DNA of 53,104 nucleotides from a virus (Duplodnaviria; Caudoviricetes). Location of the stretch: positions 1 through 53,104 of the IMG/VR virus record IMGVR_UViG_3300044991_002645; one strand, written 5' to 3'. This document shows positions 5,507-29,059 of this stretch, piece by piece (the stretch's first letter is position 1; every line of letters starts with the position of its first letter). The notes beneath the pieces were generated by a model. The model did not search any database. It had not been told where the DNA came from and saw only the letters and a program-made list of their open reading frames with translations. The position numbers and the translations under genes were made by a program.

Positions 5507-5507
5507 G

Positions 5508-12361: not shown

Positions 12362-13834
12362 TTAAATATACGCCGCGGTCCTAGCTGCCGCCAGCGAAAC
12401 CGCAGCCTCCGGCATGTCCGCCACAGCGGACACGACGTATTTCACATACTCCAACGCCAGATACCTGGCTTCAGGACTAGTCTGGAGTGAGGCCCTCTTT
12501 TGAATAAATATAACACCAACTCCAGAAGGTCGCCCCATTCCAGCTATCGGATTGGAAGCCAGACGGCGGGATACAACCCCGGGAAGCGCCGAGAACATGG
12601 GAGCCAAGGCGGATGCCACCACCCGGGCCAACCCCCCGGAACGACAGGCATCCCCGTCATAGGAGGAGTCGTCCAGGACTTCGGATGACAGTCCGGGGTC
12701 GTCGCAAACCTCCGACAACATCCCGGGCAACATGGATTGGGCCTCATCCTCGAAAGGTTCTATCTCCTCCCGGCTGGCCGCGGCCACCAGGCGTATGAAC
12801 ACCTTGAAGGGCAGCACGACTCCCGCGGAGGACAACTCCTTGAACAATCCCGAAGACTTAGTCTTGAACAGGTTGCACATGTCGTCGTCAGACAACTCGT
12901 CGGGACATCCGCAGCAGGGTCGGAAGGCGTCGAGGACGGCGTCCTCCCCCTCCGCCGAGGATAGGAACCGCTTCTCCATCCTCGACAGCTTGCCCAGCGC
13001 GGCCGACTTGCGTTGCGCGGCCGACTTGCCTATAGCTAAAAAAGAGGGAATGGTTTTAACCAATCCACACATCTCGGCCAATTCCGCTCCGCCCATGACC
13101 CGGGCGGACGCGACCTTCATCAAACCAAAAGCTATCTTGTCCGCGGGAATCACCACCCCGGAGATGTCATGGAACATAGGGGAATCGTTTATGGCCCCTA
13201 TCCTGTGACCCTCCTTGGTGAGGGTGCACATGGCCTCTTTGAGGTGGCTGCAGTAATCCTCCCTGCGGCTGGCCCTGTTGTGGCAGTAGCTGCACATGTC
13301 CGTGGGGACGTTCGCAGCCATGCTGAAGTAGACTGGTTTGTCATTGGCCAGCTTCTCCAACTCCCCCCTCCATTTATCCTCTTGGAGCCCCACAAGCAGT
13401 TCGCCGCGCTCCATCTCCTCATTGTACGCCTGCTTAACTATGTATCCGCTGGGCTTGCCTCCCTTCATGCTGTTGACGTGGTTCTTGTAGACGGCGGCCG
13501 TCTTCTCGAATGTTGGATGGTACTTTTTAAGACCCCCATCCAGGGCCACCACCCGGAGGCATCCCTTCCCCGGAGCAGCGCACTCATGCTCCACGGCCTC
13601 CTTGTTGAAGTAGTCCCCGTTATTGTTAGATCCATACATCTCCATGGAACCCAAAGAGATAAGGTGCATGTAGGAATGATCGGCCCTGCGTTCGAAGTCC
13701 AATCCGGCGAACATGCCGCCGGACGCCCGCTTCTCCAGCACCGTCCTGTCCAGGCCCCTACTCCCCACCCCTATCAAGGTGGCGGGAGGCATGCCGAAGT
13801 CGAAACTATCTGGAAATATGACTTTGGTCATCAT
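12362..13834 (-). CDS. Probable prohead (maturation) protease with Cys/His Zn-binding insert
   Basis: NNNGDYF, YKNH, FSMAANVPTDMCSYCHN..YCSHL and FHDISGVVIPAD motifs resemble HK97/assemblin-type prohead proteases. Sits upstream of scaffold and MCP. Confidence 0.7.
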   Translation of the reverse strand: MMTKVIFPDSFDFGMPPATLIGVGSRGLDRTVLEKRASGGMFAGLDFERRADHSYMHLISLGSMEMYGSNNNGDYFNKEAVEHECAAPGKGCLRVVALDGGLKKYHPTFEKTAAVYKNHVNSMKGGKPSGYIVKQAYNEEMERGELLVGLQEDKWRGELEKLANDKPVYFSMAANVPTDMCSYCHNRASRREDYCSHLKEAMCTLTKEGHRIGAINDSPMFHDISGVVIPADKIAFGLMKVASARVMGGAELAEMCGLVKTIPSFLAIGKSAAQRKSAALGKLSRMEKRFLSSAEGEDAVLDAFRPCCGCPDELSDDDMCNLFKTKSSGLFKELSSAGVVLPFKVFIRLVAAASREEIEPFEDEAQSMLPGMLSEVCDDPGLSSEVLDDSSYDGDACRSGGLARVVASALAPMFSALPGVVSRRLASNPIAGMGRPSGVGVIFIQKRASLQTSPEARYLALEYVKYVVSAVADMPEAAVSLAAARTAAYI

Positions 13835-15313: not shown

Positions 15314-16087
15314 TCACGCCTCCTTGGCTGGCCTCTGAGTCTCCAGCAGGCCCGTCCCGCTGGCCATCAATTGAAAAACAGGCGTGGCCGCGGCGTATAA
15401 ATCCCCGTGGTTCGACCCTGTATCCACCTGCACATGATCTCTAGCTAAATCCGTCATAGTCAGTTCCCTGGGTATGAATTCAAGACTGAAGTCTCGGCGT
15501 ATGGCCTGGCGGACCCTTTCCGACTTGCACATGCGGAGCATGCGGTCCTCCTCTTTGTCCGTCAACTCGGAACCTCGCTCGACACATTTCTTCAGCATCT
15601 CCTCGCCCCCGTAATATCCCATGACCTTCCACACGTGCCGAGAGAACCTAGCATCCTCCGACCCTCCTTGAGCGGGGGCGAGCACCCGGGCCTCCACCCA
15701 GGGTTTGCACGATATTCTCGAAGCCACGTCGAAGAACCACAGCCTATACAGGAGCTGGACCTGCGGTATGAAGGCCGGACCCAAATCCTCTCTTATCCTG
15801 TAAGGAGGCACCCCAGCCAGGATGGCGGCCTCCAGATAATGGCGCTCGCAACCCGGGAAATCCTGTTCCGATATCTTGAAGGCCTGATACTGCACAGGGG
15901 TCACGGACATCAGTTGATCCCTTGGATGGGTCCATTTGGCCACCAACTCCAAGTAGGCGGCCAACCCATAGGCCGCGGGATCCAAATGCAGAGGGCATGG
16001 AAGCCCTTGCTCCCTCGCGGCCACCCACACGTTGGCGGCGGCCAGCCTCCACGCGGGATCGTCCAACAACTCTGATGCCTTGATCAA
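15314..16087 (-). CDS. Hypothetical protein
   Basis: 257 aa, coupled to both neighbours. Confidence 0.7.
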   Translation of the reverse strand: MIKASELLDDPAWRLAAANVWVAAREQGLPCPLHLDPAAYGLAAYLELVAKWTHPRDQLMSVTPVQYQAFKISEQDFPGCERHYLEAAILAGVPPYRIREDLGPAFIPQVQLLYRLWFFDVASRISCKPWVEARVLAPAQGGSEDARFSRHVWKVMGYYGGEEMLKKCVERGSELTDKEEDRMLRMCKSERVRQAIRRDFSLEFIPRELTMTDLARDHVQVDTGSNHGDLYAAATPVFQLMASGTGLLETQRPAKEA

Positions 16088-18144
16088 ACCTTGAACTCCT
16101 CTCCAGGGTCGAAACCCAGCCTGTCGGACGCCGGATTGCTGGACACCGTCTTCCTCATCAGGAACAAGGACATGTCGCCGAGCATCTGGAACACGTTGCG
16201 GAGGCCATCCTCCAGCTCGCGCATCTCCTCGGAGCCGTAGCGGCTCTTGAACTCCTCATTGTGCCAATAAAACAGGAACAGCAGGCGGCCCACCTTGTCC
16301 AGGGCGCGCAGCATGTCAGGGATGCACTCGTCCACCAGCATCAGAGGGGAGTGGGTCTTGGCCAGCAGCTTAAGCACGCCCACATCCATCACATCCTTCA
16401 GCCCCGCGTTGGATGCCTTCACCACGTCCTGGACGCCGGACGCAGGGGTAGCCCCCGTCACGTCCTTGGTCTCCGTGATCGACTGGGACTCCGGCGCGGC
16501 GGCGGCACCCGTGCTGGGATATTCGGCAGCGTACTTGACCAGGCAGGATCTGCTGCGGCCGTCCAGCGCCTCGGACATGACGGAACTCGCGTCCCCGAGG
16601 GACATCCCATAATTGGCCATCAGAAGTTTGAGGGCCGCGCCCTTCTCCAGGGACCCGGAGCAGCCCAACTCGTCGGAGGATATCTCTATCCTGGATCCGT
16701 CGGAGTTGAAACGGACACGTTTGAGGCCCAGTTTAGAGCGCAGGGCATTAAGCGGAGTGTTCGCATTGCCCAGCCTGTAGGCCTCGGCGCGCCTGTCGGA
16801 CTCGCCGACTGACACGACGTACCGGGCCCCCGACGGGATGTACAGAGTGTCCCCGACGCACATCATGGAGCCCGGCTTGCCTGTGAGCTCCAACTGGGCT
16901 ATCCTCTTGCCCTTCGCCCCCTCCATGCCGGGCGAGCGCGCCTTGTAGCGGGATCCGTAAACGTCCCTGCTCTTCTCCACGTACACCTCGTACGCCTTCA
17001 AATCCTTGTCGAACAGCACGAATATCTGGCCGTCCTTCTCGTCCCGTAGCGATGATATGGGTTTGCCCCACGATCCGGCCACGGTCTTGAGGAGGGATTC
17101 CGGCTTGGCGGCCTGGACGTGCGTGTTGCCCGGGATGGCCACGGCCTTGTCCTCCGGCACCAGTTTGAAACTGCCCGAGCCCTCGTCGGGATTGGACACC
17201 CTCTGGGTGTTGGCGGGGAAGAGCACCAGGAATTTATGGTAGGACCCGTCGCCCATCAGAACCTCATGCTCCCCCTGGGCCACGGGGGTCGAGAGCGATC
17301 CGGAGCCCGCGGGTGTCTCGGACATGTACACGTCGGTGTGATCCTCCCGGTCGTCGCGGGCGACGACTCCGACGGAGGCTTTTTTAAGGAGTTGCGAACG
17401 TTCCTGGGCTGTCAAATCGGAAGATCCCATATCCCGGAACGATAAGAATGATTCGGGCTCGGCCGCCGTCTTCTGGATAGACTCCAGGACAGTCGCCGCG
17501 ACGGCCCCCATCAAATCGGAGGGGTCGTAGTAGCGCAGCACCGCGTTGGCCAGGTCGGGCTCGTCGTTCAGCAGGAAAGGGAGTCGCTCGGCCGCCGTCT
17601 TGCCCAACCGGGGAACCCACTCCAGTAGATCGAACGTCCCAGGGCGCCAATCGGCCCTGGACTCATTGAGCATATCCTCGAGCACCATGCCGACGTTGCG
17701 CCCGTCGAAGGACGCCAACTTGTCCACCTGGCCCGCGTAGGGGGCTGTGTTCTGCGCAACCCTCGCGCTGCCTGGCCCGCCCGTGGGCCGATAGCCCTCG
17801 GGGGCCGGCTCGCCTATGCTGTGTGGTTGTTTGCTCTTCACCCATGTGATCCAGCTGTCCTTGTTAGGCAGCATCTGGGACATTCCCGGGATGAACATCA
17901 AATCCAATCCACGGAGCCTGCCGTTCAAATAGAAGACAGGTATGTATATCCACTGCGAACCCAATTTGTAGACCATCACCCCCACCGCGCGGGAGCCTGA
18001 GTCGTCAGACTCTATGAGCTGGAAACCCACTTTGTTGTCCGCCAATCCAGGGGAGTTCTGCGATATCTCCGCGTCAGCCAGTTGGGCCAACGAGGTCTCG
18101 ATTGCCGGTCCCGCCGCCTGCTTAGTGAATGTGGTCAAAGACAT
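16084..18144 (-). CDS. Large hypothetical head-module protein with many KxA motifs
   Basis: 686 aa with KQAA, KLAS, KTAA (twice), KKAS and KYAA. RBS GGAGG with a TATATT motif upstream. Confidence 0.8.
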   Translation of the reverse strand: MSLTTFTKQAAGPAIETSLAQLADAEISQNSPGLADNKVGFQLIESDDSGSRAVGVMVYKLGSQWIYIPVFYLNGRLRGLDLMFIPGMSQMLPNKDSWITWVKSKQPHSIGEPAPEGYRPTGGPGSARVAQNTAPYAGQVDKLASFDGRNVGMVLEDMLNESRADWRPGTFDLLEWVPRLGKTAAERLPFLLNDEPDLANAVLRYYDPSDLMGAVAATVLESIQKTAAEPESFLSFRDMGSSDLTAQERSQLLKKASVGVVARDDREDHTDVYMSETPAGSGSLSTPVAQGEHEVLMGDGSYHKFLVLFPANTQRVSNPDEGSGSFKLVPEDKAVAIPGNTHVQAAKPESLLKTVAGSWGKPISSLRDEKDGQIFVLFDKDLKAYEVYVEKSRDVYGSRYKARSPGMEGAKGKRIAQLELTGKPGSMMCVGDTLYIPSGARYVVSVGESDRRAEAYRLGNANTPLNALRSKLGLKRVRFNSDGSRIEISSDELGCSGSLEKGAALKLLMANYGMSLGDASSVMSEALDGRSRSCLVKYAAEYPSTGAAAAPESQSITETKDVTGATPASGVQDVVKASNAGLKDVMDVGVLKLLAKTHSPLMLVDECIPDMLRALDKVGRLLFLFYWHNEEFKSRYGSEEMRELEDGLRNVFQMLGDMSLFLMRKTVSSNPASDRLGFDPGEEFKV

Positions 18145-18191: not shown

Positions 18192-20078
18192 CTAATTTCC
18201 GGGGGTCCAGGCCGATGATTTCTCCATGGGGGATTTGTCCCCTATGGATCTGAAGTTATCGGCCCCGCCCATGAAAGTCAACTTAGAGAAGTATGAGGTC
18301 CCCTTGGGATCCGACAGCGACCCTCTGGACGCCGCGTCGGTCACGGAGCGCATCAGCTGCTCCCCTCCCATCCGAGACACCCAATCCTCGTCCAGAGTCT
18401 GAAAGGCCTGCGCCCTGCCCACAACAGGGGTAAAAGGCGGTGGATCCTTATGGACAAGGACAGTCGAATGCCCGAACTCCCTCAACTCCTTCACCACCGA
18501 CGGAGTCAACTCAGTGCCTATGGTATAGTGCAGATAGGGTTTCTCCAAGTACCTGCCGGCAGCCCTGTCCAGCGGAACGGGCGCGGAGCCTTCCCGAGGC
18601 TCCCACCCCGCCGCCAGCTTCTCATAGGGCACCACGTCGCCCAGTATATGGCCGGGCACGCTATCATCCTCAATACGGACCCTGTCTATGAACGCGCGGG
18701 CCAGCATCTCCATATTTCGGCGGGACGTCGACATCTTGTTATTCTTAAGGACGTCCTTGAATGAATTTATGAAAATCCTACGGGCCTCCCCTATACCCCT
18801 GAGACGGGCCACCTCGGCTGGATTGGACGTTCCCGTCGACAAAGGCAGGCCCCGCTCCACGGAATCCCCCTCGGCCACAGATAGATCCATCGATGGGGGC
18901 ACGTAGTGATCCACTCCCAAGACGCTCACGCTCCAGCCCCCCTGGGGCAGAGGGCGGACCGTCCCCACCCTGCCCGCGGCCTGGGCCAGCGTGGCCCCGC
19001 CGACGAAATGCTCCGGCACCTGGATCATCTGGTTCACCTCGGGCAATCCGGACAACCCAGGCCTGCTTTTGCCTTTGGTGACCGCCCCTGCGTGTTTCGC
19101 GCCCAGCGCCATCTGAGTGGCCGCCTCGGTGAAGGCCTTGACCGCGTTCAACCCGACGTTGTCCCCTATGGGCGGGAGATCCCCGTTCTCGCGCCATCCG
19201 GCTGCAGCCTGGGTTATCCCCTCGGCCACGTTGTTGGCTATGGGACTCTTCACAACGATCCGGCCCCTCAACAGAGGCATGTGATCCTTGCGTATGACGG
19301 TGCCCGCGGGTAATTCCCCTACGGGCCTGGCCAGCACCGAACCTACGTTGTCTGGGTCGGACCCATCCACGATGTACCCCTCGTCGGGATCGCCCCCGTC
19401 GACGGATGTCACCATCAGCCTGTGGGCCACGTTCGAGACCTGTTTGGATAGATAACCCGCCTTGCCCGTGGCCAACTGCGTGCCCACGAAGCCTTTGCGC
19501 GTGGCCTGGGCACCCAGCCAGTAGGAGAAGGAGTCCTCCCCCTGCCCATAGCCCCTCAGCGCGGGCCAGGGGTACGCCTTGCCGTCGGGGTCGCCTATGA
19601 GGTAATCCCCCATGGCTATCTGCATCAACTGCTGTTTGCTGCCGCGGGCCCCCACGTTGACCTGGCCGGCCAGACTATTCTTGTTCTTCTCTAGAATATT
19701 CCAAGCGGATGCCTCGGCCCCATCCCTGTCGGCCATCATCGAATCCACCAGCCGCGTACCCCTCTTCGCGGGATCAGGCTCCGCTTTGGCTGCGGCCAGG
19801 GCCCTGGACCTGACGCCTGCCTTGAGCGCGGCCATGTCGGGCGAGTCCTCTATGTCTTTGAGCGAGACGCTGGCTTCCCGCCCATAGGTGGACACCGTCT
19901 CGTCGCCCAAAGCCAGAAAAACCTCCATCGAGCGTTTATAATCCTCCGGATTGGTGACGGCCAACTCCGTGAAATATTTCTTTATGTCGGGGGTGGTCCA
20001 CGCGCGGTCCGCCCTGTCCTTGTAACCGTCGGGAAGACCCTTGCGCAGCAATTCCCTGCCTAATGTGGTGACGGCCAT
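18192..20078 (-). CDS. Phage RNA polymerase beta' subunit, C-terminal half
   Basis: Bridge helix ATRKGFVGTQLATGKAGYLSKQV (cf. [23 protein letters not shown]), trigger loop GDNVGLNAVKAFTEAATQMALGAKHAG, and GLPEVNQM (cf. GLPRVADL). Confidence 0.9.
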   Translation of the reverse strand: MAVTTLGRELLRKGLPDGYKDRADRAWTTPDIKKYFTELAVTNPEDYKRSMEVFLALGDETVSTYGREASVSLKDIEDSPDMAALKAGVRSRALAAAKAEPDPAKRGTRLVDSMMADRDGAEASAWNILEKNKNSLAGQVNVGARGSKQQLMQIAMGDYLIGDPDGKAYPWPALRGYGQGEDSFSYWLGAQATRKGFVGTQLATGKAGYLSKQVSNVAHRLMVTSVDGGDPDEGYIVDGSDPDNVGSVLARPVGELPAGTVIRKDHMPLLRGRIVVKSPIANNVAEGITQAAAGWRENGDLPPIGDNVGLNAVKAFTEAATQMALGAKHAGAVTKGKSRPGLSGLPEVNQMIQVPEHFVGGATLAQAAGRVGTVRPLPQGGWSVSVLGVDHYVPPSMDLSVAEGDSVERGLPLSTGTSNPAEVARLRGIGEARRIFINSFKDVLKNNKMSTSRRNMEMLARAFIDRVRIEDDSVPGHILGDVVPYEKLAAGWEPREGSAPVPLDRAAGRYLEKPYLHYTIGTELTPSVVKELREFGHSTVLVHKDPPPFTPVVGRAQAFQTLDEDWVSRMGGEQLMRSVTDAASRGSLSDPKGTSYFSKLTFMGGADNFRSIGDKSPMEKSSAWTPGN

Positions 20079-20100
20079 GAGACGTTCCCCAATCTACGGG

Positions 20101-20910
20101 TCACTTGGTTGAGGTGGGTTGCGGTTGTTTCGGGCCCTTGTAGCCCGCGCCGGCCCACGTGTACAAGGTCTCGGCCAACAAGGTGATGGCGCCGGCCTTG
20201 GCCGTGGCCTTGCCCCATTTGACCTTTCTAAGTTTATCCATCGCGGCGCGGTCGGCCTCGGTCAGCACGGCCCCGGGGGTTCCGGCGCGGGATATCCTAT
20301 CGGCGGACGCGTGGTTGGATCCCGCCGCGTCCGGCTCGATGCCCGCCTTTTTGAGGGCCGCCAGGTCGGCCCGCTCGGCGGCCACCAGCTCCGGCGAAGG
20401 AACGTGTCGGTTCTTGGCTTTGTACATTGAGTGGGCGATACTCCCTCCGAACGCTCCCAGTTTGACGGCCGAGTTGTCGACCTCCCAATTGGCCAGGGTG
20501 TTGTTCAGGAGACTGTCCGTGAAGCCGCCCGGGACGAGTCCCGCGCCGACGGCGACGTTTCCCCCCAGCGTCCTCCCGAACGAGCCTATGTTCTCCATGG
20601 TGGTTTTCTCGCTGGCGGGTTTGGCATCCGTCGCTTTATCCGCGGCCGCCATGGCCTTGGCCTTCTCGGCCTTGGCCTCCGCGGCCTTCTCGGCCTTGGC
20701 CTCCGCGGCCTTGCCATCCTGCCGCAACCCCTCCAAGGTGGATCCCACCCCCAGGCCCAGCACCGCGCCGCCGGCGGAGGTCGCGGCCAGGCTGGCCGCG
20801 TCACTCAACTCGAACGCATACTTGCCAGTCAGGAATCCAGCCAACGCCCCCACCAAGGCTCCCGTGGCTGGAAGGGCGTACTCCGCTTGCTTCTCGATGT
20901 GTCTGCTCAT
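20101..20910 (-). CDS. Hypothetical glycine-zipper/membrane-type protein
   Basis: Starts MSRHIEKQA, followed by two Gly/Ala hydrophobic helices and an AEAKAEKA tandem repeat. Confidence 0.7.
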   Translation of the reverse strand: MSRHIEKQAEYALPATGALVGALAGFLTGKYAFELSDAASLAATSAGGAVLGLGVGSTLEGLRQDGKAAEAKAEKAAEAKAEKAKAMAAADKATDAKPASEKTTMENIGSFGRTLGGNVAVGAGLVPGGFTDSLLNNTLANWEVDNSAVKLGAFGGSIAHSMYKAKNRHVPSPELVAAERADLAALKKAGIEPDAAGSNHASADRISRAGTPGAVLTEADRAAMDKLRKVKWGKATAKAGAITLLAETLYTWAGAGYKGPKQPQPTSTK

Positions 20911-20922
20911 GGGGCTCCCTGA

Positions 20923-21879
20923 TTATTTGGATTCGCGCATGTTGCGCATCATTTGAAAAACTCGATTGCCCCTGCCGGATGCCGCCTGCTTTTGTTGAGG
21001 GCTCGAACGGGGGCTTGCGGGTCCGGTGGCTCCGACGGCCTCGGCCAAGTCCATGGGGCCGGGACTTTGTCCCTGAGGGGATCCGCCAGCCAATTGGCCG
21101 ATCAGCCCCTCCAACTTGTCCAGCCTGTCCATTATGTCCGAGTTGCTTATCCGCTGGTTCTGCCCGTCCCTGCTCTTGCCGCCCTCCTCCATGATCTCGG
21201 CGACCATCTGCCTGAGCTGGTCCGTCGACATGGTCACAGAGCCCCCCGCGGGAGTTGGCATGGGGCCGCCCTGGCCGCCCTCCGGCGGGGGTTGGCCGCC
21301 GCCCTGGCCCATGGCCTGCTGGACGATCGGCATGACCTGGTCGGGTCCCACGGGATTGCCCTGGGCGTCGACCGGACCCTTCTGAGGGTCGACCGTTATC
21401 CCCGCGGCCTGCAACGCCTGCTGGACCTGGGGCTGCATCAGAACCTGCATGACTTCCGGTGGAACTGGACTGCCTCCCTGCGCCGGTGGCTGGCCGCCTT
21501 GAGGTGGCTGGCCGCCGCCCTGGCCCATGGCCTGCTGGACGATCGGCATGACCTGGTCGGGTCCGACCGGCTGCCCGTTCTGATCCACAGGGCCTTGCTG
21601 GGGGTCCACGGTTATGCCTTGGGCCTTCAGCGCCTGCTGGACCTGGGGCTGCATCAGAACCTGCATGACCTCCGGAGGTATCTGCGGGCCACCTTGCGGA
21701 GGGGGTTGGCCGCCGCCCTGGGCCGGGGGTTGGCCGCCGCCGTTGGCCGGGGGTTGGCCGCCGCCCTGGGCAGCCTGCTGGGCCTCGGGGGTCATGGGCG
21801 AGAACGCCCTCTTCTGTAAACCGCGGTTTAACGCCAGCCGGGCCAATAAATCTGGATTGAGCATGAGGTGGGTCTCCAT
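20923..21879 (-). CDS. Gln/Pro/Gly-rich protein with an internal duplication
   Basis: GGGQPP repeats, two copies of PPEVMQVLMQPQVQQAL...VMPIVQQAMGQ, and LQKRA near the N-terminus. Confidence 0.8.
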   Translation of the reverse strand: METHLMLNPDLLARLALNRGLQKRAFSPMTPEAQQAAQGGGQPPANGGGQPPAQGGGQPPPQGGPQIPPEVMQVLMQPQVQQALKAQGITVDPQQGPVDQNGQPVGPDQVMPIVQQAMGQGGGQPPQGGQPPAQGGSPVPPEVMQVLMQPQVQQALQAAGITVDPQKGPVDAQGNPVGPDQVMPIVQQAMGQGGGQPPPEGGQGGPMPTPAGGSVTMSTDQLRQMVAEIMEEGGKSRDGQNQRISNSDIMDRLDKLEGLIGQLAGGSPQGQSPGPMDLAEAVGATGPASPRSSPQQKQAASGRGNRVFQMMRNMRESK

Positions 21880-21895
21880 TGTGTTTAAGTCTAAT

Positions 21896-24800
21896 TTACA
21901 CCGGCAACGCGCGAGCGGTTATCTCTATGGGGTCGTCCACGTCGAGCAAACCTTTCCTCCAAGCCGCGCGGGCCTCCTCCAGGGAGGCGAACACCTTGGT
22001 GGCCTGGTCCTGTCTGGCCCTGGTGGCCAGCGCCACGCCCTGCGCGAACTCCGCCGACGGCGTGTAGTTGGCCTGGAACGTGGACGCCCCCAGCAGCGCC
22101 CGCGAGGGCAGCATCCGGTCGCGGGCCTCCTTGACGGCCGCGTCGGTCACGGGCACGTGGAAGGACATTGTGTTGGATAGGATCACCCCGTCCACGGACA
22201 TGAACGTCTCGTACCCAGGCACGGTCAGATCGTATCCGGTTTCCACCTTGCCTGTCCTCTCATAAGACTCGACCCTGTCCCACACCACGGACTCGTTGGT
22301 CACGAACTGCACGAATGCCTCATAATCCTTATGCGTCCGGATAGCGGCCACATGCTCCGAGAGGAAACGCCGGGCGAACGAACGGGATATGCACCCCGTG
22401 ACCAAGGCTTTGCGTAATATGACATACCCGCTGCCGGCCTTATGCGCCGAGTACTCCGCCGCGGAGATCGTCTTGACCAGATCAGACGTGATCGGGATTT
22501 GATCGTTGCGATTAGCCGAGGCGGACGCCTCTTTTTGCAGGGGGGCGTCTCTCAAGGCGGCAGCTTTGTTGTCTTTGGCCAAATGCAAATCCAACTTCAA
22601 CACGTCGGATGCGCACATGGCTAACACCCAGCACTGACGGCCGGCGGGTGTTTTTGACGAGGAGATGCGGCTATACACGCCCAGCGTGCGGCATAGGTGC
22701 TGCGTCTCCCTGACCAGCCGCAGGGAGTTAGACTGCAGAGACACATGCAACTGAGGTATTTTTCTAGCTTTATTCACCGCCACCGAGCCGTCCGTGTCCA
22801 GCAATCCCTCGAGAAGTGCTTTACGCGTGGCCTCGGGGGCGGAGGCGAACCAGCGGGGCAGGTGTTTGTTATCCGCGCCGGAGCTGATCCACTCCTTAAT
22901 CTGAATGGCCATGGCTTTGTTGGAAATGCACAGCCTGCTGCAGTCCGCGTGTCTATCCGCGTACACTGGATTGGCTTTATCGAAAAAGGAACGGCCTATA
23001 TGCTGCTCCGATCCCCAAACCATGCGCACGGAGGAGCTAAACCGGGCGAACACGGACTCATCGTCCCCGGCGAGGAAAACCTGCATACCGCCGGTCCGCC
23101 CCTCGGTCACCCAGCCGTCGCCAGCCATGGCGCCGACCACGTACCCCAACTCGGGGATCAACTCGAAACCGTCCACTTTGCGCAGCTCCCTCGGCGGATC
23201 CACCCTGTCCGCCCGCGGGACCAGCATGCCGATGGACTCCGACGGCCGGCGGCGGACCAGCTCGTACGTGCCCGGCAGCAGCCCGTACACGGCGCGCTCG
23301 TCGTCGTCCGTGAGTATCTGGCGGCCCGACAAGAGGTTGACTATCTCCACCTCGCAGCCGGTGTGCTCCGACCATCCCGCGACCGGCGCGGCCTTGACCA
23401 TCTTGGTGGCCTCGTCATAGGCGTACACGCTAATGCCCTCGGGCATCACATGATATTTTATGTTCCCCTGATCCACATGATCCTCGTGATGCGGCACGTC
23501 GGCCAAGTCAACGACGGCCCAGCACCCGCCTTGTCCCACCACCGCCCCGTTTTTGACAAACATCTTGTAGGCCTCCTCATAAGTGACGCTAACTCCGGCG
23601 ACACTTAAATGTAGCCCTTTACTGCAATCTTTACAAGGGGTTTTCATAAACATCTTAATGAGGCTATTCTCTTGGTCCCCGTCGAAATCAAGGTTATACG
23701 GCTTCACTATCGAGGGATTCACCCTGAGAACGTCCCCCGGCACCAGCACCGGCTCGTGGGCCATGATGCCGAACTTGTGCAGCGTGGGCGCGCGGTTGAG
23801 CAGCACGGGGCGCTCGGCCACGGCCTGGACGAGGAACGGCCGGGCGGCCTTGGCCCTGTCGGCCACCAGCCGGACCGCGTCGGTCGCGGGGAACCCCGCC
23901 TGTATCATCTTGCGCACGACGAACGGCTCGAACGAGTCCCAGGCCAGCGTCTCCGGCAGGCCGACCTGGTCCATGCCTATGCTGGAGTCGGGCACCACGG
24001 CCGCGCGGCCGACCATCTCGGTGGTGGCCCCGGCGACCCTGCGCTGGAACGCCCCCTCCTTGGGGCTGGCCTTGCCGAACACCCACGAGAGCAGTCCGCC
24101 CACGCCTTTGGCCTGGGCCTCCTTGTCCTCGGGGTCGCCGTAGCCTCCCGCCGCCTTGAACGCCCGCCACACGGAGGCCCTGGCGTCGGCCAGCTGGCTG
24201 CCGCCCATGACGGACTTGGCCTCGCGGAGGTCGTCCCGGGCCGCGAGCAGGTCCTTGTACATGTAGTTGGCGTCGGACACGATGCTGAAGTCGGACGCCG
24301 TGGCTATGCCCCGGAAGGCCGGCGGGAGCACGGGCACCTTGTCGAACACGTAGTCCGAGGGCTTCTCGCCGCGGGACTCCATGGAGGCCAGGGCGCGGTA
24401 CCGCTTCAGGGCGGCGTCGCGGGACTGGCCCTTGCCTCTCTTGAAATCGTTGAGGGATGCCGCCATCTCGGCCTTGACGTCCACGGCGGCCAGCGCCTTC
24501 TTTATGGCGGCCCCCCCGGTGGCCCCTGCCAACTCCTTGTTCCCCTCCACCACGGCGTCGTAATCCTTCAGGGTCAGATTCAATATCCTGCGGAGGGAGT
24601 CCGTCATGGCGGGGTTGGGCAGCGGCTCGTCGAGCGGTATGGCCGCCCAGCCCCTGCCATCCTTTCCGAAAGTCGCGTCGTCGAATAGGCCGCCCCGCAT
24701 GGGCGTGAAGTTCTTGGAGTCGTATGTGTCCGCGTTGACGACCTCCCGGGGGCCCGCCAGATCGGCCACCGAGGCTGCCGTCATGGGCGTGAGCGAGACT

Positions 24801-27800
24801 TTCCCGTCGCCCGTGCGCCGGACGTCCAGGCCCGCCCCCTTGAGGGACTCCACGAACTTCTCATGCACCAGCGGCACGCCCGGCAGCTGCGGGGTGCCCC
24901 CCAGCTTGAACTCGCGCCAGAAGTCGTAGTTCTGCTGGCCGCGGACGAGTTTGGCGTCCTCCAGAACCTTCCAGGCCCCGTGGGCCACGATGGCCCCCAC
25001 CTCCAGACTGTTGGCGGCCAAGGCGCCGGACACCGTGTATGAATGCGTCTCGTCGACCGTGATATTGTACACCGGCACGGTGGCCGAGGGCTTGTCCGGA
25101 ATATAAGACCGCACGTCGCGGACGCGCAGCGGGACCAGACCCAGCCTGGCGGCCTTGTCGAACGGCGACAGGGCTCTGGCTCCGATAATCTCCGAGACCA
25201 CTCTGATGAGCATGTCTTTACTTTTCGGTATGACTGACACGGGAACGTGTCGCGACACTATGGCGGCCAATTCATAGAAACCCTTTTTATTGAAGGCTAT
25301 CACATATTGTGGGACCCCTGAAAACGACTCGGCGTCCTGTTTCGCGTGAATGCTCGTCACATTGAATCTGTTCCTTAACATGTCAATCAAAAGCTCCACC
25401 TCGGGCAAGGAGTAACTATGTGTGCATAATTTACCCTCGTATTTGGGCTTACCTTTTTTCTTACACATGTTTCTGAAATATCCGTCGTCGATGATCCACA
25501 GGGCGATCCCAGCCTCCGACACAGCGTCCGCCCACTCCCGCGTGACTATCTTGCCTGCGCCCGTTGAGCGGCAGACGGCGAACACTGACCTAACCACATG
25601 CGGCATGGATATGCACACGACGCTTCTAGTGTATCTCGCTCCCGGGACGACTTGATCCGCGCAATAATACCGCATGCCCATCAAAGACCCGAACAGACTT
25701 TGCTTGAACTCCAGGTACGCCTGCTGCTTATTGGAGTGCATGAAAGACACCGTCTCGGATGTGACCGACGCGTCGCCGAGCATGGTGCCCAGCAGCGCGC
25801 CCATCTGATCGGCCGTGGGAACGGGACCCCAGGTCGCCACCTCGTCGCCCGGGCGCAACTCACCCGCCGGCTTCTTGGAGCCATCGGTCAGATAGAACGG
25901 ATGATTCTTGGTCGGATACGCGCACGATGTGTGCTTGAATTTGCTTTTGCCTCCGTAAACCGAGGGGGCCCCCGCGAATTCTACGGTAATCACATCCTCC
26001 ACAGGCACTTCGCGGGTGAACCAGTCCACGACCCTCCGGTACACCCATTCCCCTTGTTTATCCGACCACGTCAACACATAGTCTCCAGTGCGCTTCTCCA
26101 CTATGGTGCCTATCTTCCGTTCGCCGTGCGCGGTCATCACCGGCTGTTTGGATATGAAGCAGCCCAGTCTCTTTCCCCCTCCATAACCACCTTTGACCGG
26201 AGTCTCGTCCATCGAGTAGCCGCCGGTCCCCCGGGCCCCCGTCTTGCCCTCGGACATGTGCTTGGACCTGAGTATGTACTGGACCCCGGTGAATATCTCG
26301 GGTATGTTGCGGCCGGTCTCCGGATCGGTGAGGTCCTCCGTGTCGGACAACCCCGCCTTGTCCAGCTCCTCCCTGGCCATCTGGGCCATGGAGCGGTCCA
26401 TGAAGCCGGGCAGGACGTATGGCTTGCCCGTCTTGGCCGTCACCTTGCCCAGGACCGTCTCGACCATCTGGCTGGTGTTGGTCCTCGTTATCAACCCCAT
26501 CGGGTTGATGACGAGCTCGAAAGGATTCCCCTGCGCGTCATGGGGCATTTGATTGTCCGGAAGCACTTGGCTGACGACGCCTTTATTTCCGAACCTGCCC
26601 GCGATTTTGTCCCCCGACTGCACCGGGACGTTGGCCCGGACGAATACCCTGACGGTCCCATCCTTGCCCTTCACCACGTCGGACACCACCCCGGGGAACT
26701 CGTGGTCCCACACGGCGGACACGTCCTTGGTGAGCCTGCGGCCCAGCGTGCCCACCCCCGGCTCCGTCTCCTTGACGGCCAGCACCAGCGGGTCGCCGTG
26801 CGCGACGGCGGTCCCGGGCTTGACCATGCCCCTGTCGTCCATGCGGGACTTGACGAACTCTGGATCATGCGCCCCAGGGTAGAGCGACATGAACTTCAAC
26901 CTGTCCACGACCACCCCGGGCCCCGCGCCCACCGAGACGGGCATCATCTCCTCGGCCGCCATCTTCCTGGCGGCCGACTCCGACATGCAGAACGCGTCCT
27001 CGAAGGTCTTGCCCTTCCACGGCATGTATGCCACGCGCAGGTTGCGGCCCACCGCGAGCGCCCCGTCCTTGTCCGCGTAGTTGGTCGTGGCCAGCACTTG
27101 GCCGGGGGCCACGGCGTCGCCCCGCTTGACCAGCGGTATGGACCTCAGGTACCCTTTGTTGTTGAACGGGAAATTGTCGTATAGCTCCACGGTCTCCATC
27201 TTGCCGTCCTGGCCCTGCAGTTTGATCTCCCCGGACCCGACCGACATCACGGTGGAGGGGGCCGATGCCTTGCGGACCCCCATCATGCCGCCTATCTTGT
27301 CCTCGTAGGATTTGCCCGTCTCGGAGTCCAGCGTGCGCACGAAGGGGGCCTCCCGGTCCACCAGCGGCATGGATTGGCCTATGTGCTTGGATGCCATCAG
27401 AAGGCGCATGCCCTTCACGCCGGATTTGAGCGGGACCAGGTTTGACGCGAAGTTGAACATGCTGTCAGGGTCGTCGACTATGAGGTCCACGTCCTTGCGG
27501 TCCACCACCCCTACGTCCTTGCTGCGGCTCATCACCGGGATCAACTCGTCCTTGGAGTTCCACATGTCGGCCGTGGTGACCTTGGCCAGGCTGGCCTTCT
27601 TGGAGTCCACCCACACGACCTGCCCGGTCCTGGCGTCCCTGAACCTCGAATGCAGCAGGTTGTCGGAGCCCTTGCGCGTGCGGTCGGCCAGGTAGACGTC
27701 CAACCCTATGGTGGACTTCTCGGGGGACCTCACGGGGTCTATGAAGTTGTGGAAGGAGTTCTGCACGGAGCGCATGGTCGAGTTCTCGGGGGCCGCGCGC

Positions 27801-29059
27801 TCGTCGGAGACACCGCCCTCGCCCAGCCGCGTGATCTTGGACGACTGGTCCAGGGCCTCCAGGGGGTTCGCGCCGTCCAGGTAGGTCATCACCCCGGTGT
27901 CGGTGAAAACGCCGTCCACTGCCTTCTGCAAGGCCCCTGAGGGCAATGTGCTAAGGTCGCCCTTGAACGTGTGCTTCCAAAGCATCTTGTTGATGTGGCC
28001 GCCTCCGTCGCGCCTGAGCCGCTCGCCGAAGAAGTCGTCGAGTCCGTGGACCTTTTGGAACTCCATGCTGTCGCGGGGGTCCTCGTCGACCTCGCCCCTG
28101 TTGAGCTTGATGAGTTTGGCCGCGGTCGCCGTGAGGAGCTCCGGCGAGACCTTGTCGTGGCGGAACCCCAGATTCAACTCGGTGGCGTCGGGGTCCAGCC
28201 TCATCTTGGCGAAGGCCTCGCGCAGCCTGTCGCCGGATCCGTCGCCCCTGATGGAAACGACAGTTGGCCCACTCTTAATCTGAGTCAGGCTGGTGGGCGC
28301 GGGAGTCTCCTCGGGTAGGTGCAGCCGCGGCAGCTCGGCGGCCTCCTTCTCCACGGTTTCAGGCGGAGGCGTGGTTCGGAACGCCTTCTCCAGGGAATCC
28401 GTGGTTGCTCGAGCGGAGGCCTCGGAGTTGGCCTTCAATATCTCGGGGCCCCACGCGGCGGCGAGCTGCCCGTCGGTGACGCCCATGGCCTTGAGCGCGG
28501 GGTACAGTTTGTGGGATCCGCCCTTGTCCACGGAGAACACCCCGGTGGCCGGGTCCATCTCGACGCGGAAGGGGTAGCCCGTGCCCTGCTCCACGTTGAC
28601 GTGGGACTCCAGCCCCCCGTCCAGGCGGCGGCGGGCGAACACGCCCGAGGCCAGACGCATCATGTAGCCGCCGGCGTACTCGGCGCCGTTCTTGATGAAG
28701 GTGCCCCGCTCGGTGAGCCAGGGGACGCGGGCCAGGACCTTGCGGCCGGTTTCGTCCAGGACGTTCCCGGTGGCCTTGTCGACCAGCCTCCATTTGCCCG
28801 ACACGGGCACGGAGATGTCGCCGCCGTCCATGATGGCCTGCTTCTGCTCCTTGAGCGAGAACCCCTTCTTGGCGTCGGTCCTCACGTCAGACAGCTCCAG
28901 CCGGACGCGGCCGTTGTCCACGGGGAACCTCTCGGCCAGGGACTTGACCACGTTGGCCAACAACTTGTCCCGCTTGCGCACGAAATCGAAAAGGCCTATG
29001 GGCTCGTCAACAGGATCCCCGGGCTTGACCCCGGCGACGTCGTCCAATAAATACTCCAT
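21896..29059 (-). CDS. Phage RNA polymerase: beta fused to N-half of beta', with two inteins (about 1502 aa spliced)
   Basis: Beta motifs FIDPVRSPEK..IGL, GRNLRVAYMPWKG.TFEDA, GDKIAGRFGNKGVV and GGKRLG..E. Beta' motifs GGLFD...FG, VPVLPPAFR, LLNRAPTLHK and NLDFDGD..M..HVP. Confidence 0.95.
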   Translation of the reverse strand: MEYLLDDVAGVKPGDPVDEPIGLFDFVRKRDKLLANVVKSLAERFPVDNGRVRLELSDVRTDAKKGFSLKEQKQAIMDGGDISVPVSGKWRLVDKATGNVLDETGRKVLARVPWLTERGTFIKNGAEYAGGYMMRLASGVFARRRLDGGLESHVNVEQGTGYPFRVEMDPATGVFSVDKGGSHKLYPALKAMGVTDGQLAAAWGPEILKANSEASARATTDSLEKAFRTTPPPETVEKEAAELPRLHLPEETPAPTSLTQIKSGPTVVSIRGDGSGDRLREAFAKMRLDPDATELNLGFRHDKVSPELLTATAAKLIKLNRGEVDEDPRDSMEFQKVHGLDDFFGERLRRDGGGHINKMLWKHTFKGDLSTLPSGALQKAVDGVFTDTGVMTYLDGANPLEALDQSSKITRLGEGGVSDERAAPENSTMRSVQNSFHNFIDPVRSPEKSTIGLDVYLADRTRKGSDNLLHSRFRDARTGQVVWVDSKKASLAKVTTADMWNSKDELIPVMSRSKDVGVVDRKDVDLIVDDPDSMFNFASNLVPLKSGVKGMRLLMASKHIGQSMPLVDREAPFVRTLDSETGKSYEDKIGGMMGVRKASAPSTVMSVGSGEIKLQGQDGKMETVELYDNFPFNNKGYLRSIPLVKRGDAVAPGQVLATTNYADKDGALAVGRNLRVAYMPWKGKTFEDAFCMSESAARKMAAEEMMPVSVGAGPGVVVDRLKFMSLYPGAHDPEFVKSRMDDRGMVKPGTAVAHGDPLVLAVKETEPGVGTLGRRLTKDVSAVWDHEFPGVVSDVVKGKDGTVRVFVRANVPVQSGDKIAGRFGNKGVVSQVLPDNQMPHDAQGNPFELVINPMGLITRTNTSQMVETVLGKVTAKTGKPYVLPGFMDRSMAQMAREELDKAGLSDTEDLTDPETGRNIPEIFTGVQYILRSKHMSEGKTGARGTGGYSMDETPVKGGYGGGKRLGCFISKQPVMTAHGERKIGTIVEKRTGDYVLTWSDKQGEWVYRRVVDWFTREVPVEDVITVEFAGAPSVYGGKSKFKHTSCAYPTKNHPFYLTDGSKKPAGELRPGDEVATWGPVPTADQMGALLGTMLGDASVTSETVSFMHSNKQQAYLEFKQSLFGSLMGMRYYCADQVVPGARYTRSVVCISMPHVVRSVFAVCRSTGAGKIVTREWADAVSEAGIALWIIDDGYFRNMCKKKGKPKYEGKLCTHSYSLPEVELLIDMLRNRFNVTSIHAKQDAESFSGVPQYVIAFNKKGFYELAAIVSRHVPVSVIPKSKDMLIRVVSEIIGARALSPFDKAARLGLVPLRVRDVRSYIPDKPSATVPVYNITVDETHSYTVSGALAANSLEVGAIVAHGAWKVLEDAKLVRGQQNYDFWREFKLGGTPQLPGVPLVHEKFVESLKGAGLDVRRTGDGKVSLTPMTAASVADLAGPREVVNADTYDSKNFTPMRGGLFDDATFGKDGRGWAAIPLDEPLPNPAMTDSLRRILNLTLKDYDAVVEGNKELAGATGGAAIKKALAAVDVKAEMAASLNDFKRGKGQSRDAALKRYRALASMESRGEKPSDYVFDKVPVLPPAFRGIATASDFSIVSDANYMYKDLLAARDDLREAKSVMGGSQLADARASVWRAFKAAGGYGDPEDKEAQAKGVGGLLSWVFGKASPKEGAFQRRVAGATTEMVGRAAVVPDSSIGMDQVGLPETLAWDSFEPFVVRKMIQAGFPATDAVRLVADRAKAARPFLVQAVAERPVLLNRAPTLHKFGIMAHEPVLVPGDVLRVNPSIVKPYNLDFDGDQENSLIKMFMKTPCKDCSKGLHLSVAGVSVTYEEAYKMFVKNGAVVGQGGCWAVVDLADVPHHEDHVDQGNIKYHVMPEGISVYAYDEATKMVKAAPVAGWSEHTGCEVEIVNLLSGRQILTDDDERAVYGLLPGTYELVRRRPSESIGMLVPRADRVDPPRELRKVDGFELIPELGYVVGAMAGDGWVTEGRTGGMQVFLAGDDESVFARFSSSVRMVWGSEQHIGRSFFDKANPVYADRHADCSRLCISNKAMAIQIKEWISSGADNKHLPRWFASAPEATRKALLEGLLDTDGSVAVNKARKIPQLHVSLQSNSLRLVRETQHLCRTLGVYSRISSSKTPAGRQCWVLAMCASDVLKLDLHLAKDNKAAALRDAPLQKEASASANRNDQIPITSDLVKTISAAEYSAHKAGSGYVILRKALVTGCISRSFARRFLSEHVAAIRTHKDYEAFVQFVTNESVVWDRVESYERTGKVETGYDLTVPGYETFMSVDGVILSNTMSFHVPVTDAAVKEARDRMLPSRALLGASTFQANYTPSAEFAQGVALATRARQDQATKVFASLEEARAAWRKGLLDVDDPIEITARALPV
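22172..23674 (-). mobile_element. Atypical intein (501 aa) with LAGLIDADG endonuclease, inserted after the catalytic DFDGD
   Basis: Removing QENSL...VILSN restores NLDFDGD|TMSFHVP. Block F/G reads GYDLTVPGYETFMSVDGVILSN|T. LAGLIDADG motifs VVGAMAGDG and LLEGLLDTDG. Lower GC than the flanks. Confidence 0.88.
23561..23636 (-). promoter_or_regulatory. Sigma70-like promoter, RBS and in-frame ATG inside the intein
   Basis: TTGTAA (23636-23631), 17-nt spacer, TACATT (23613-23608); then GAGGAGG 8 nt before an in-frame ATG at 23563. Confidence 0.55.
25010..26161 (-). mobile_element. Intein (384 aa) with LAGLIDADG endonuclease in the beta C-terminal GGxRxG motif
   Basis: GGKRLG|CFISKQ start, block B TKNHPF, LLGTMLGDAS and IALWIIDDG motifs, end VYNITVDETHSY..GALAAN|SLEVG. 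Confidence 0.92.

Follow-up and report, generated by a model that had tools for sequence, protein, structure and literature searches.

The locus raises the questions of how a multisubunit RNA polymerase is divided between two genes that lie among the head genes of a phage, to which lineage such an enzyme belongs, and whether it travels in the virion. The two genes were found in a stretch of 53,104 nucleotides, hereafter the window. Record IMGVR_UViG_3300044991_002645 consists entirely of this 53-kb contig, and the phage is uncultured. We consider it likely that the window comes from a large tailed phage of Arash-like type with a two-gene, bacterial-type RNA polymerase core, which would most likely be packaged and start transcription independently of the host.

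Organisation of the polymerase genes

Both polymerase genes belong to a single co-directional array between the portal gene and a protease-like gene, which is where the original prediction had placed them. The features of this region, in the order in which they are read, are as follows.

32486..34303, minus strand: portal protein (Arash portal gp204, E = 1e-78; weak PHROG portal match)
21896..29059, minus strand: precursor gene of beta plus the beta' N-half, 2387 aa (1502 aa without both inteins)
26162..29059, minus strand: beta before intein 1 (residues 1-966), with the rifampicin-pocket region, the beta double-psi beta-barrel (DPBB) and the GNKG lysines K818/K826
25010..26161, minus strand: intein 1 (residues 967-1350, 384 aa) with a LAGLIDADG_2 endonuclease; junctions G/CFISK...ALAAN/S
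23675..25009, minus strand: beta C-terminal tail running straight into the beta' N-half, to DFDGD (residues 1351-1795), without Cys
24605..24694, minus strand: GGLFDDATFG...EPLPNPAM, site of the absent beta' Cys4 zinc ribbon
23675..23689, minus strand: catalytic DFDGD (residues 1791-1795; E. coli beta' D460, D462, D464)
22172..23674, minus strand: intein 2 (residues 1796-2296, 501 aa) with a LAGLIDADG_3 endonuclease; junctions DFDGD/QENSLI...VILSN/T
21899..22171, minus strand: final 91 residues of the beta' N-half (TMSFHVPV...), equivalent to Thermus beta' 745-833 and ending at about E. coli beta' 550
20923..21879, minus strand: intervening ORF, 318 aa, no family; weak relatives at 7/82 loci
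20101..20910, minus strand: intervening ORF, 269 aa, no family; relatives at 0/82 loci
18192..20078, minus strand: beta' C-half gene, 628 aa, without cysteine (Pfam Rpb1_5, 1.7e-14)
19416..19532, minus strand: bridge-helix region (beta' C-half residues 183-221)
19080..19148, minus strand: first arm of the trigger loop (beta' C-half residues 311-333)
16084..18144, minus strand: 686-aa protein, no known fold; a relative follows the beta' C-half gene in 75/82 loci (median gap 61 nt)
12362..13834, minus strand: probable prohead protease with a T4 gp21-like N-terminal domain; homologue of Arash gp222
9437..10396, minus strand: major capsid protein (Arash gp226, E = 3e-30)

The 2387-codon frame of the fused gene is intact. 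Its product matches Rpb2_6 (9e-50, residues 606-950), Rpb2_3, Rpb1_2 (1.6e-21, residues 1747-1799) and, weakly, Rpb1_1 in Pfam, together with LAGLIDADG_2 (1088-1259), LAGLIDADG_3 (2080-2153) and Intein_splicing. In alignment, K818 and K826 correspond to the beta active-site lysines K1065 and K1073 of E. coli, and D1791, D1793 and D1795 form the aspartate triad of the beta' barrel. Since the lysines and DFDGD lie in the same ORF, both barrels are on one chain, and the predicted fusion of beta to the beta' N-half is borne out. DFDGD becomes contiguous with the following beta' strand only once intein 2 is removed. The join between the subunits was mapped with the family profile against E. coli rpoB and rpoC, because a phmmer search of the PDB with the 110-aa junction segment alone returned spurious matches only. 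In this mapping the profile reaches beta residue 1339 of 1342 and, 20 profile positions later, enters beta' at residue 35.

Changes at the E. coli rifampicin-pocket positions Q513, H526, R529, S531 and I572 confer resistance. These residues are replaced in this phage by T, Q, K, T and D, respectively, while D516 and L533 are retained, and on this alignment the polymerase is probably rifampicin-insensitive.

The remainder of beta' is encoded by the separate 628-aa gene, which carries the bridge helix and trigger loop as had been proposed: residues 110-335 align with beta' 701-942 of 7xya_D, and the trigger loop is without the E. coli-specific insert. The profile of this family, from its position 3, starts at E. 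coli beta' residue 571. Taken with the profile of the fused chain, this places the cut in beta' at about E. coli residues 555-570, immediately past the DPBB.

The beta' N-terminal Cys4 zinc finger is deleted, again as predicted. Residues 1353-1795 of the fused protein contain no Cys, and E. coli beta' 65-159, which holds the finger, has shrunk to 29 family-profile positions. The site is absent in 102 of the 103 family members matched by pattern (48 unmatched members were left out), so its loss is a trait of the lineage and not a peculiarity of this gene. A second zinc site, near E. coli C814/C888/C895/C898, is kept in 16 of 21 aligned family members; the beta' C-half chain here has no cysteine, and the second site is thus also lost in this phage. 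The alpha N-terminal domain (PF01193) was matched in 0/5 related genomes, against 14/14 controls, the window itself being a fragment. As no alpha-like platform was detectable, some of the assembly role of alpha may fall to the covalent connection between beta and beta'.

The surrounding genes are less readily assigned. The model of the 12362-13834(-) product (pLDDT 78.7) has T4 gp21 (5jbl) as its best fold match in the PDB (probability 0.99, TM 0.61 on the target, E = 0.075); it has no Pfam or PHROG match, and because the call rests on the fold we identify it as the prohead protease with moderate confidence. The 686-aa neighbour had no usable match in the ESM Atlas (pLDDT of its own model 0.39). 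Most neighbouring ORFs were without PHROGs or Pfam matches, a megablast search of the phage collection with the whole region gave no match, and no tRNA genes were found. The genes that flank the polymerase include those for portal, capsid, protease and tail fibres.

Relation to other phage and cellular polymerases

The original prediction expected that no described phage group would have the same split, and this expectation failed. Salmonella phage Arash (OQ632216), which is cultured, encodes the same two chains, gp206 (1525 aa) and gp216 (606 aa), at the same genomic position, and the cultured Vibrio phages D69, D148 and D181 share this arrangement, with both genes located between those for portal and capsid. 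Chains of this type measure 1525-1527 aa (beta plus beta' N-half) and 606-609 aa (beta' C-half). Arash gp206 (32% identity) and D69_0261 (31%) can be aligned with the whole of the fused protein, and the window shares with Arash and D69 the order of the genes for portal, both polymerase chains, the protease-like protein and capsid. The Arash and Vibrio phages share with the window the missing beta' N-terminal zinc ribbon, and these relatives have one polymerase set per genome. They differ in that their chains are only 27-32% identical to those of the window and are free of inteins; in addition, Arash has nine small genes between the polymerase genes, where the window has two, and an SNF2 helicase directly after the beta' C-half, a position at which the window has none. 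Arash and D69 also encode Sigma70_r2-type sigma factors. Matches to Sigma70_r2 were found in 0/3 near-complete relatives closer to the window, those to Sigma70_r4 were all sub-threshold, and none of 34 further window ORFs searched with Pfam, the two polymerase genes apart, had a sigma domain. The available text of the Arash paper labels the chains 'beta' and 'beta-prime' and does not discuss a fusion or split (PMC10585845).

The family is large, with 208 IMG/VR contigs. The two-gene layout recurs in 70 of the 80 IMG/VR loci examined, in addition to Arash and D69, and many of the loci come from genomes of 140-226 kb. Rpb2 and Rpb1 domains occur in one protein in 74 of the best 76 database relatives; 21 of these 76 also carry Rpb1_5, so that fully fused forms exist inside the phage family, and 36 separate beta' C-half proteins were found. 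A phmmer search with the beta' C-half chain returned 872 cluster representatives at E <= 1e-30. Relatives with near-complete genomes span 144-226 kb, and one Rpb2_6 gene per genome was present in 5/5 of those examined and in Arash and D69. Some beta' C-half forms are long (1208-1775 aa). We considered fusion with the 686-aa neighbour and rejected it, as 0 ORFs were matched by both; the extensions had no Pfam domain.

A phylogeny had been proposed as a check on the claim of a distinct lineage, and we built one from beta segments. Of 182 candidates, 78 were incompletely covered or carried inserts and were removed, as were a further 38 that were redundant at >75%; nine bacterial rows were then re-added. 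The tree was inferred by a quick search from phage sequences and a narrow outgroup that was bacterial only, and within that scope the 11 bacterial beta sequences separate from the phage family as a whole (SH-aLRT 99), with a two-gene clade of 49 rows, including the window, Arash and D69, at support 97. AR9 enters as one row on a long branch (2.95), which makes its placement unreliable; phiKZ and the second AR9 beta piece were not found by phmmer at E <= 1e-3 and are hence off the tree. The lineage does stand apart from phiKZ/AR9 and from the sampled bacterial beta subunits, but it is already represented in published phages, and the enzyme described here is an additional member of the known Arash-like two-chain lineage.

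Probably, this lineage is identical with mReC, a clade reported by Weinheimer & Aylward 2020 (PMC7481178). The available text of that work describes 'multimeric RNAP-encoding Caudovirales' as metagenomic tailed phages, some >200 kb, in which beta and beta' are near enough to their cellular counterparts to match COG0085/COG0086; the polymerase genes lie amid hallmark genes of phages and branch deeply, as a clade apart from cellular sequences. The same text does not describe a fusion, split or inteins of the mReC enzyme, and fusion is raised there for crAssphage only. In the literature searched (PMC10585845, PMC7481178, PMC7598289, PMC7824862, PMC12153180), as far as the texts were available, the fused-and-split architecture is not described; supplements may hold it.

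The window enzyme was further said to follow a different pattern from the phiKZ and AR9 polymerases, which holds for beta and for the number of sets but not for the cut in beta'. In phiKZ and AR9, beta is in two to three pieces, nothing is fused, there are two paralogous sets (virion and non-virion) and no sigma factor, whereas beta here is unsplit and fused to the beta' N-half, in a single set (the set count being taken from relatives). According to the available text of PMC7598289, beta' of phiKZ/AR9 is likewise cut past the DPBB, at the position where cyanobacteria divide rpoC1 from rpoC2, and this feature is therefore common to both groups. Neither alpha nor omega homologues are reported for phiKZ/AR9, and one of their enzymes is packaged (PMC7598289, PMC7824862, in the text available).

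Several other polymerases are divided or joined in comparable ways. Cyanobacterial and plastid rpoC1 (gamma) and rpoC2 have a natural beta' cut in the region past the DPBB, as in the window, with beta encoded separately. The beta' C-half residues 91-337 align with RpoC2 residues 81-348 (8gzg_Z), which offsets the two N-termini by about 10-16 residues, and gamma extends about 60 residues further beyond DFDGDQ than the phage beta' N-half, so the two cuts may differ. The rpoB-rpoC fusions of Helicobacter and Wolbachia link the beta C-terminus head-to-tail to the beta' N-terminus, like the window, but take in the whole of beta' and belong to an otherwise ordinary cellular holoenzyme, which has alpha, omega and the zinc sites. 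Phages also encode two-barrel polymerases as single chains, as in the virion enzymes of crAss-like phages and in YonO. Parts resembling beta and beta' are described as fused in the crAss-like enzyme, and these single-chain polymerases are too divergent for the cellular COG models (PMC7481178, available text); unlike them, the window enzyme retains most of the cellular beta and beta' domains.

Two other origins were weighed against membership of the Arash-like lineage, and we regard both as highly improbable. Were the enzyme of the phiKZ/AR9 (Chimalliviridae) type, this would fit the shared position of the beta' cut (PMC7598289, available text), the lack of an alpha homologue in both and the packaging of one polymerase by phiKZ-type phages. 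It would not fit an unsplit, fused beta or one set in place of two. The phiKZ/AR9 enzymes are also far more divergent from cellular ones: Rpb2_6 scores 170-204 bits in the window, Arash and D69, against 27.8 in phiKZ and 75 in AR9, and Rpb1_2 has no match in phiKZ and a weak one in AR9. With the beta segment, phmmer recovered one AR9 piece only, at 72 bits, and tblastn of the phage collection with the beta' C-half chain recovered no phiKZ-like phage at E <= 1e-5. Alternatively, these might be rpoB-rpoC genes of a cell, present because the contig is a chimera with host DNA or because a phage captured them recently from a bacterium. In favour of this are the closest solved structures, which are of beta and beta' subunits from bacteria, and the high GC content (58-70%). 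Yet the solved bacterial beta subunits that match the beta part come from various phyla and fall in a narrow band of 137-188 bits, no phylum being favoured, and in the database search phage-family relatives scored 264-876 bits against <=180 bits for bacterial beta. The split between the phage family and the bacterial sequences in the tree and the phage genes on either side also speak against a cellular origin.

Inteins within the fused gene

Intein 1 interrupts beta at the junction that corresponds to G1271/E1272 of the E. coli subunit and is missing from Arash and D69. It has the expected ends (C967 ... N1350 / S1351), an endonuclease and an in-frame position, together with a weak PT-HINT match in Pfam; its penultimate residue is Ala instead of His. 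Intein 2 is less conventional. It directly follows DFDGD, has Gln instead of Cys/Ser at position 1 and 'TDDD' in block B where TxxH is usual, and ends at N2296 / T2297 with Ser in place of the penultimate His. Its Intein_splicing match (1e-5) is under the curated Pfam cut-off. Alternatively, the intein could begin at the conserved Ser1799, three residues after Gln1796. Class-3 inteins are defined by a block-F Cys, and assignment of intein 2 to this class was ruled out, as its block F has Asp.

If intein 2 could not splice, a 501-aa insert would adjoin the catalytic aspartates, and the gene would encode an inactive polymerase or be decaying. The absence of an N-terminal nucleophile, of the block-B His and of the penultimate His would be in keeping with this, all the more as a relative (L070) has a canonical intein (Ser1...His-Asn/Thr) at the same insertion site. 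We nevertheless think such a crippled gene improbable. The reading frame is intact throughout, and Gln1, DDDxRAVYG and Ser-Asn/Thr are conserved in the homologous intein of three relatives (P0073-P0075) whose polymerases are only 27-33% identical to that of this phage. Conservation of these odd junctions argues for a working, non-canonical intein 2.

Probable packaging and significance

With both inteins functional, the gene 1 precursor would be processed to a 1502-aa chain in which complete beta is linked head-to-tail to beta' as far as about E. coli residue 550, so that the two double-psi beta-barrels, the beta lysines and the magnesium site at DFDGD are all on one polypeptide. The rest of beta', which begins near E. 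coli residue 570 and includes the bridge helix and trigger loop, would come from gene 2, and the two chains would assemble into the catalytic core. Most likely, the enzyme would be made late, packed into the head and injected with the DNA, and would start transcription independently of the host polymerase. A late-made, packaged enzyme is suggested by the late portal-to-capsid array, by the single set in each near-complete relative and by the presence of the Arash enzyme in virions.

The Arash virion proteome, in the available text of PMC10585845, gives gp206 the most spectra of any protein (3516), ahead of the capsid protein, and gp216 1210. The same particle preparation also held ribonucleotide reductases, RNA ligases and primase, and its authors note possible carry-over of proteins abundant during infection; with so many other enzymes present, the Arash evidence for packaging is suggestive only. 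The polymerase might accordingly be real but absent from the virion, expressed late, or early from an unrecognised promoter, with the host polymerase starting infection as in T7-like phages. The non-structural enzymes in the Arash sample leave room for this, and gene position alone does not establish packaging. The intergenic regions had no shared 10-mer motif suggesting a promoter, and promoter-like and terminator-like sites were near shuffle expectation. We consider a non-virion enzyme unlikely, given that gp206 outranks even the capsid protein in Arash particles (PMC10585845), that in the window, as in Arash, D69 and the majority of loci, the genes are embedded in the portal-to-capsid array and share its direction, and that each near-complete genome has a single polymerase set. 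Packaging of the polymerase of this phage is thus plausible.

A more far-reaching reading, which we offer tentatively and hold to be doubtful as a whole, is that the two-chain, alpha-less enzyme is the only RNA polymerase of the phage, being packaged and injected, insensitive to rifampicin and in charge of the entire transcription programme. Both beta' zinc sites would have been shed in the sub-clade, activity would depend on two splicing events, intein 2 would belong to a conserved nucleophile-less family, and the architecture would perhaps be unpublished. If this were true, splicing of intein 2 beside the catalytic aspartates could act as a post-translational polymerase switch.

To what is known of the lineage, this phage adds a heavy intein load, an odd-junction intein at the catalytic loop and the loss of the second zinc site, and little else. 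Plain 'beta' and 'beta-prime' labels are unsuited to the chains of this family, which is large, yet has experimental data for one cultured member only. The lineage represents a naturally minimal bacterial-type RNA polymerase, which consists of two chains without a detectable alpha and in this sub-clade also lacks the zinc sites, and its enzyme is far closer to cellular RNA polymerases than those of phiKZ and AR9. This combination makes it a tractable model for the need of an alpha platform and zinc domains, and the lineage is also relevant to the way in which a packaged polymerase of several subunits leaves the particle.

Architecture of the two polymerase chains

The polymerase is encoded by two genes, listed here with their Pfam matches.

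21896-29059, minus strand: beta plus beta' N-half gene, 2387 aa (Rpb2_6, 9e-50; Rpb2_3; weak Rpb1_1; Rpb1_2, 1.6e-21)
18192-20078, minus strand: beta' C-half gene, 628 aa (Rpb1_5, 1.7e-14)

The longer chain also matched LAGLIDADG_2, LAGLIDADG_3 and Intein_splicing (Pfam), and alignment against two intein-free relatives located two in-frame insertions (residues 967-1350 and 1796-2296); the predicted spliced chain is 1502 aa. A profile of this spliced chain and 21 intein-free family members was mapped onto E. coli rpoB and rpoC. E. coli beta is covered up to residue 1339 of 1342, and after a junction of 20 profile positions the beta' match resumes at E. coli residue 35. The fused chain ends near beta' residue 550 and the separate chain's own profile begins at residue 571, so that the beta' split is, by this mapping, a clean cut immediately past the catalytic barrel. 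E. coli beta' D460/D462/D464 correspond to window D1791/D1793/D1795 and beta K1065/K1073 to K818/K826. Alignment placed the bridge helix, along with the first arm of the trigger loop, in the 628-aa chain. Between them, the two chains carry all catalytic elements of a bacterial core enzyme. The mapping agrees with the original prediction that beta is fused to the beta' N-half with DFDGD in the same chain, and alignment and the beta' C-half profile bear out the placing of the bridge helix and trigger loop on a separate gene.

The predicted loss of the beta' N-terminal Cys4 finger was also confirmed: the region spanning E. coli beta' 65-159 has shrunk to 29 profile positions. This first zinc ribbon is missing family-wide, the segment being free of cysteine in 102 of 103 pattern-matched members (48 members were unmatched and lie outside this count). 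Of 21 aligned family members, 16 retain the second beta' zinc site, of four cysteines; it is lost in the window, its three nearest relatives (P0119-P0121) and one other protein, P0148; the window's beta' C-half chain has no cysteines at all.

Relatives, phylogeny and published counterparts

The window polymerase is the standard enzyme of a large phage lineage with cultured, published members, and its local novelties are minor. A tblastn search of the phage collection with the beta' C-half chain matched 16 records. Among phages, matches over most of its length were confined to Salmonella phage Arash (181 kb, 27% identity) and to Vibrio phages D69, D181 and D148 (187 kb, 28.6% identity); the remaining 12 were weaker and shorter, three being annotated as bacterial-type rpoC or beta'. 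In Arash, portal gp204 is followed by gp205 and gp206 (1525 aa), then, beyond nine small genes, by gp216 (606 aa) and the SNF2 helicase gp217, with structural proteins and capsid gp226 after these; D69 is arranged in the same way. Unlike Arash, where the SNF2-type helicase (positions 16494-17912 of its locus, L001) immediately follows the beta' C-half gene, the window has no helicase there.

A word-indexed search with the beta part gave 116 matches among 7997 scored candidates. The best 76 are phage-type (27-47% identity), the next 37 are ordinary bacterial beta (24-36%, at most 180 bits) and the final three, each about 1630 aa long, are only distantly related. By a count from the table, Rpb2 and Rpb1 domains occur together in a single protein in 74 of the best 76, and 32 contain intein or endonuclease domains. 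Rpb1_5 is also present in 21 of the 76, which are therefore fully fused beta-beta' chains. Single-chain forms of the same family (P0054, P0057-P0070, P0072-P0076 and P0078) are about 2020-2230 aa, longer with inteins. Separate beta' C-half proteins numbered 36 among 8000 scored candidates, and exhaustive phmmer returned 3062 representatives at E <= 1e-3, 1485 at 1e-10 and 872 at 1e-30. Many homologues of this chain reach 1100-1775 aa, of which 500-1100 aa form a C-terminal extension (L038, L045, L079-L081, P0164, P0191, P0194 and many phmmer rows); the extensions match no Pfam domain and differ from the window's 686-aa neighbour.

In IMG/VR, 208 of 222 pattern matches encoded a relative and 80 loci were retained. 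A beta plus beta' N-half ORF lies upstream of a separate same-strand beta' C-half ORF in 70 of these. The beta' C-half stands alone in eight (of four such records checked, three have a fused-size ORF elsewhere and one is a 22%-complete fragment), one locus is truncated by its end, and one, the 219-kb contig L038, has beta and beta' N-half as separate ORFs. Seven relatives rated 92-100% complete, five of them at 100% and three with direct terminal repeats, span 144-226 kb. The layout is shared by these 70 loci, Arash and D69/D148/D181, and the suggestion that this split is itself distinctive does not hold.

The companion claim, that the lineage is distinct, does stand as regards phiKZ/AR9 and the bacterial beta sequences sampled. 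The beta segment was placed in a quick maximum-likelihood phylogeny of 75 rows with a narrow outgroup that included 11 bacterial beta sequences, from which the phage family split with support 99. Two-gene forms make one clade of 49 rows (support 97) including the window, Arash and D69; the window sits within a 10-row clade (support 99), and the fully fused forms were placed below the two-gene clade. Since the outgroup is narrow and AR9 is a single long-branch row, the position of the root is tentative, and so is the order in which fusion and split arose. With Rpb2_6 the window scored 170 bits, Arash 197 and D69 204, against 75 for AR9 and 27.8 for phiKZ, in which the Rpb1_2 search found no match. 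Solved bacterial beta subunits from different phyla fell in a narrow band of 137-188 bits; none of the 60 solved structures listed is a phage polymerase.

The lineage is probably the 'multimeric RNAP-encoding Caudovirales' (mReC) clade, which the available text of Weinheimer & Aylward (PMC7481178) describes as 97 metagenomic contigs with polymerase genes flanked by phage hallmark genes, and with beta/beta' near cellular ones in a deep separate clade; under fused, fusion, split or intein that text holds nothing on the mReC enzyme. In the portions available, the review of Sokolova et al. names mReC as a separate group and places the phiKZ-type beta' cut after the DPBB, coinciding with the cyanobacterial split (PMC7598289), and Iyer et al. 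confine themselves to YonO-like enzymes and the split layout of the phiKZ type (PMC7824862). The literature searched yielded no description of a fused beta plus beta' N-half with a separate beta' C-half.

The two inteins

Intein 1 (Cys967, Asn1350, Ser at +1) is canonical bar its penultimate residue, and its insertion point corresponds to the G1271/E1272 junction of E. coli beta. Intein 2 (22172-23674, minus strand) interrupts the chain immediately after the last catalytic Asp, at the equivalent of beta' D464/Q465. Class-1 inteins use an N-terminal nucleophile and class-3 inteins a block-F Cys. At this second site the intein of a relative, L070, is canonical (Ser1...His-Asn/Thr); the window's reads Gln1...Ser-Asn/Thr and has no His in block B. 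A homologous intein in P0073-P0075 also starts with Gln1, replaces the block-B TxxH with DDDxRAVYG and keeps the Ser-Asn/Thr end, and neither the class-1 nucleophile nor the class-3 Cys was seen in it or in the window's. As these deviations are conserved in polymerases only 27-33% identical to the window's, the comparison points to either a working non-canonical intein or a boundary three residues further in.

In L038 (2963-8335), beta ends in an N-terminal intein piece (G/CFTGDTEV...TKNH..., stop) at the intein 1 insertion site; 247 nt later a new ORF opens, in which a C-terminal intein piece (...HLYTLAAGIVVSN/S) precedes the remaining beta and beta' N-half. From its sequence this looks like a natural split intein joining the halves by trans-splicing, or an assembly or frameshift artefact.

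Gene neighbourhood and proposed working of the enzyme

The record is a single 53-kb contig, and from about 1.2 kb to 45.6 kb every gene runs along the minus strand, separated from the next by a very short gap. Neighbouring features are as follows.

1236-7235, minus strand: tail-fibre genes, two with an Mtd_N (major tropism determinant N-terminal) domain, one with long collagen-like repeats
9437-10396, minus strand: capsid protein, from homology search matches
12362-13834, minus strand: probable prohead protease, Arash gp222 homologue, relatives in 60 of 82 loci
16084-18144, minus strand: 686-aa protein of no recognised fold, directly after the beta' C-half gene
Between the polymerase genes: two family-less ORFs (318 aa, 269 aa)
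32486-34303, minus strand: portal (Arash gp204 match, E = 1e-78; weak PHROG portal match)

The polymerase genes had been placed between portal and protease. The gp204 match secures the portal; the protease assignment has moderate support from a predicted model (pLDDT 78.7) whose fold is best matched in the PDB by T4 prohead protease gp21 (probability 0.99, target TM 0.61, E = 0.075). In 75 of 82 loci a relative of the 686-aa protein sits directly behind the beta' C-half gene, at a median distance of 61 nt; the protein has no family or Atlas match and may belong to the virion or act as a partner of the polymerase. The 318-aa and 269-aa ORFs are poorly conserved: of the 82 loci, 7 hold a relative of the former and none a relative of the latter. 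Within the otherwise tight array, long minus-strand ORFs are missing from 45627-47933 (2.3 kb), which holds just small plus-strand ORFs of odd codon-position GC.

The two chains would assemble like beta and beta'. The alpha N-terminal domain was matched in none of five related genomes versus 14 of 14 control genomes, and the covalent beta-beta' link may therefore assume part of alpha's assembly role. In the rifampicin pocket, E. coli Q513/H526/R529/S531/I572 are T/Q/K/T/D in the window, with D516 and L533 retained; read through established resistance genetics, these substitutions predict insensitivity to the drug. Sigma70_r2 is above cut-off in Arash and D69, but three near-complete relatives that are closer to the window gave no such match, and Sigma70_r4 matches are sub-threshold only. 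Apart from the polymerase genes, 34 window ORFs were scanned with Pfam, and no sigma domain was found in them.

In Arash particles, according to the available text of PMC10585845, gp206 gave the most spectra of all proteins (3516) and gp216 gave 1210, with sigma factor Gp10 and helicase Gp217 detected too; its authors caution that abundant enzymes in particles may reflect carry-over. Given this, the late morphogenesis array and the single polymerase set per genome (in all five near-complete relatives, Arash and D69), the simplest model is that the enzyme would be packaged, injected and start transcription without the host polymerase.
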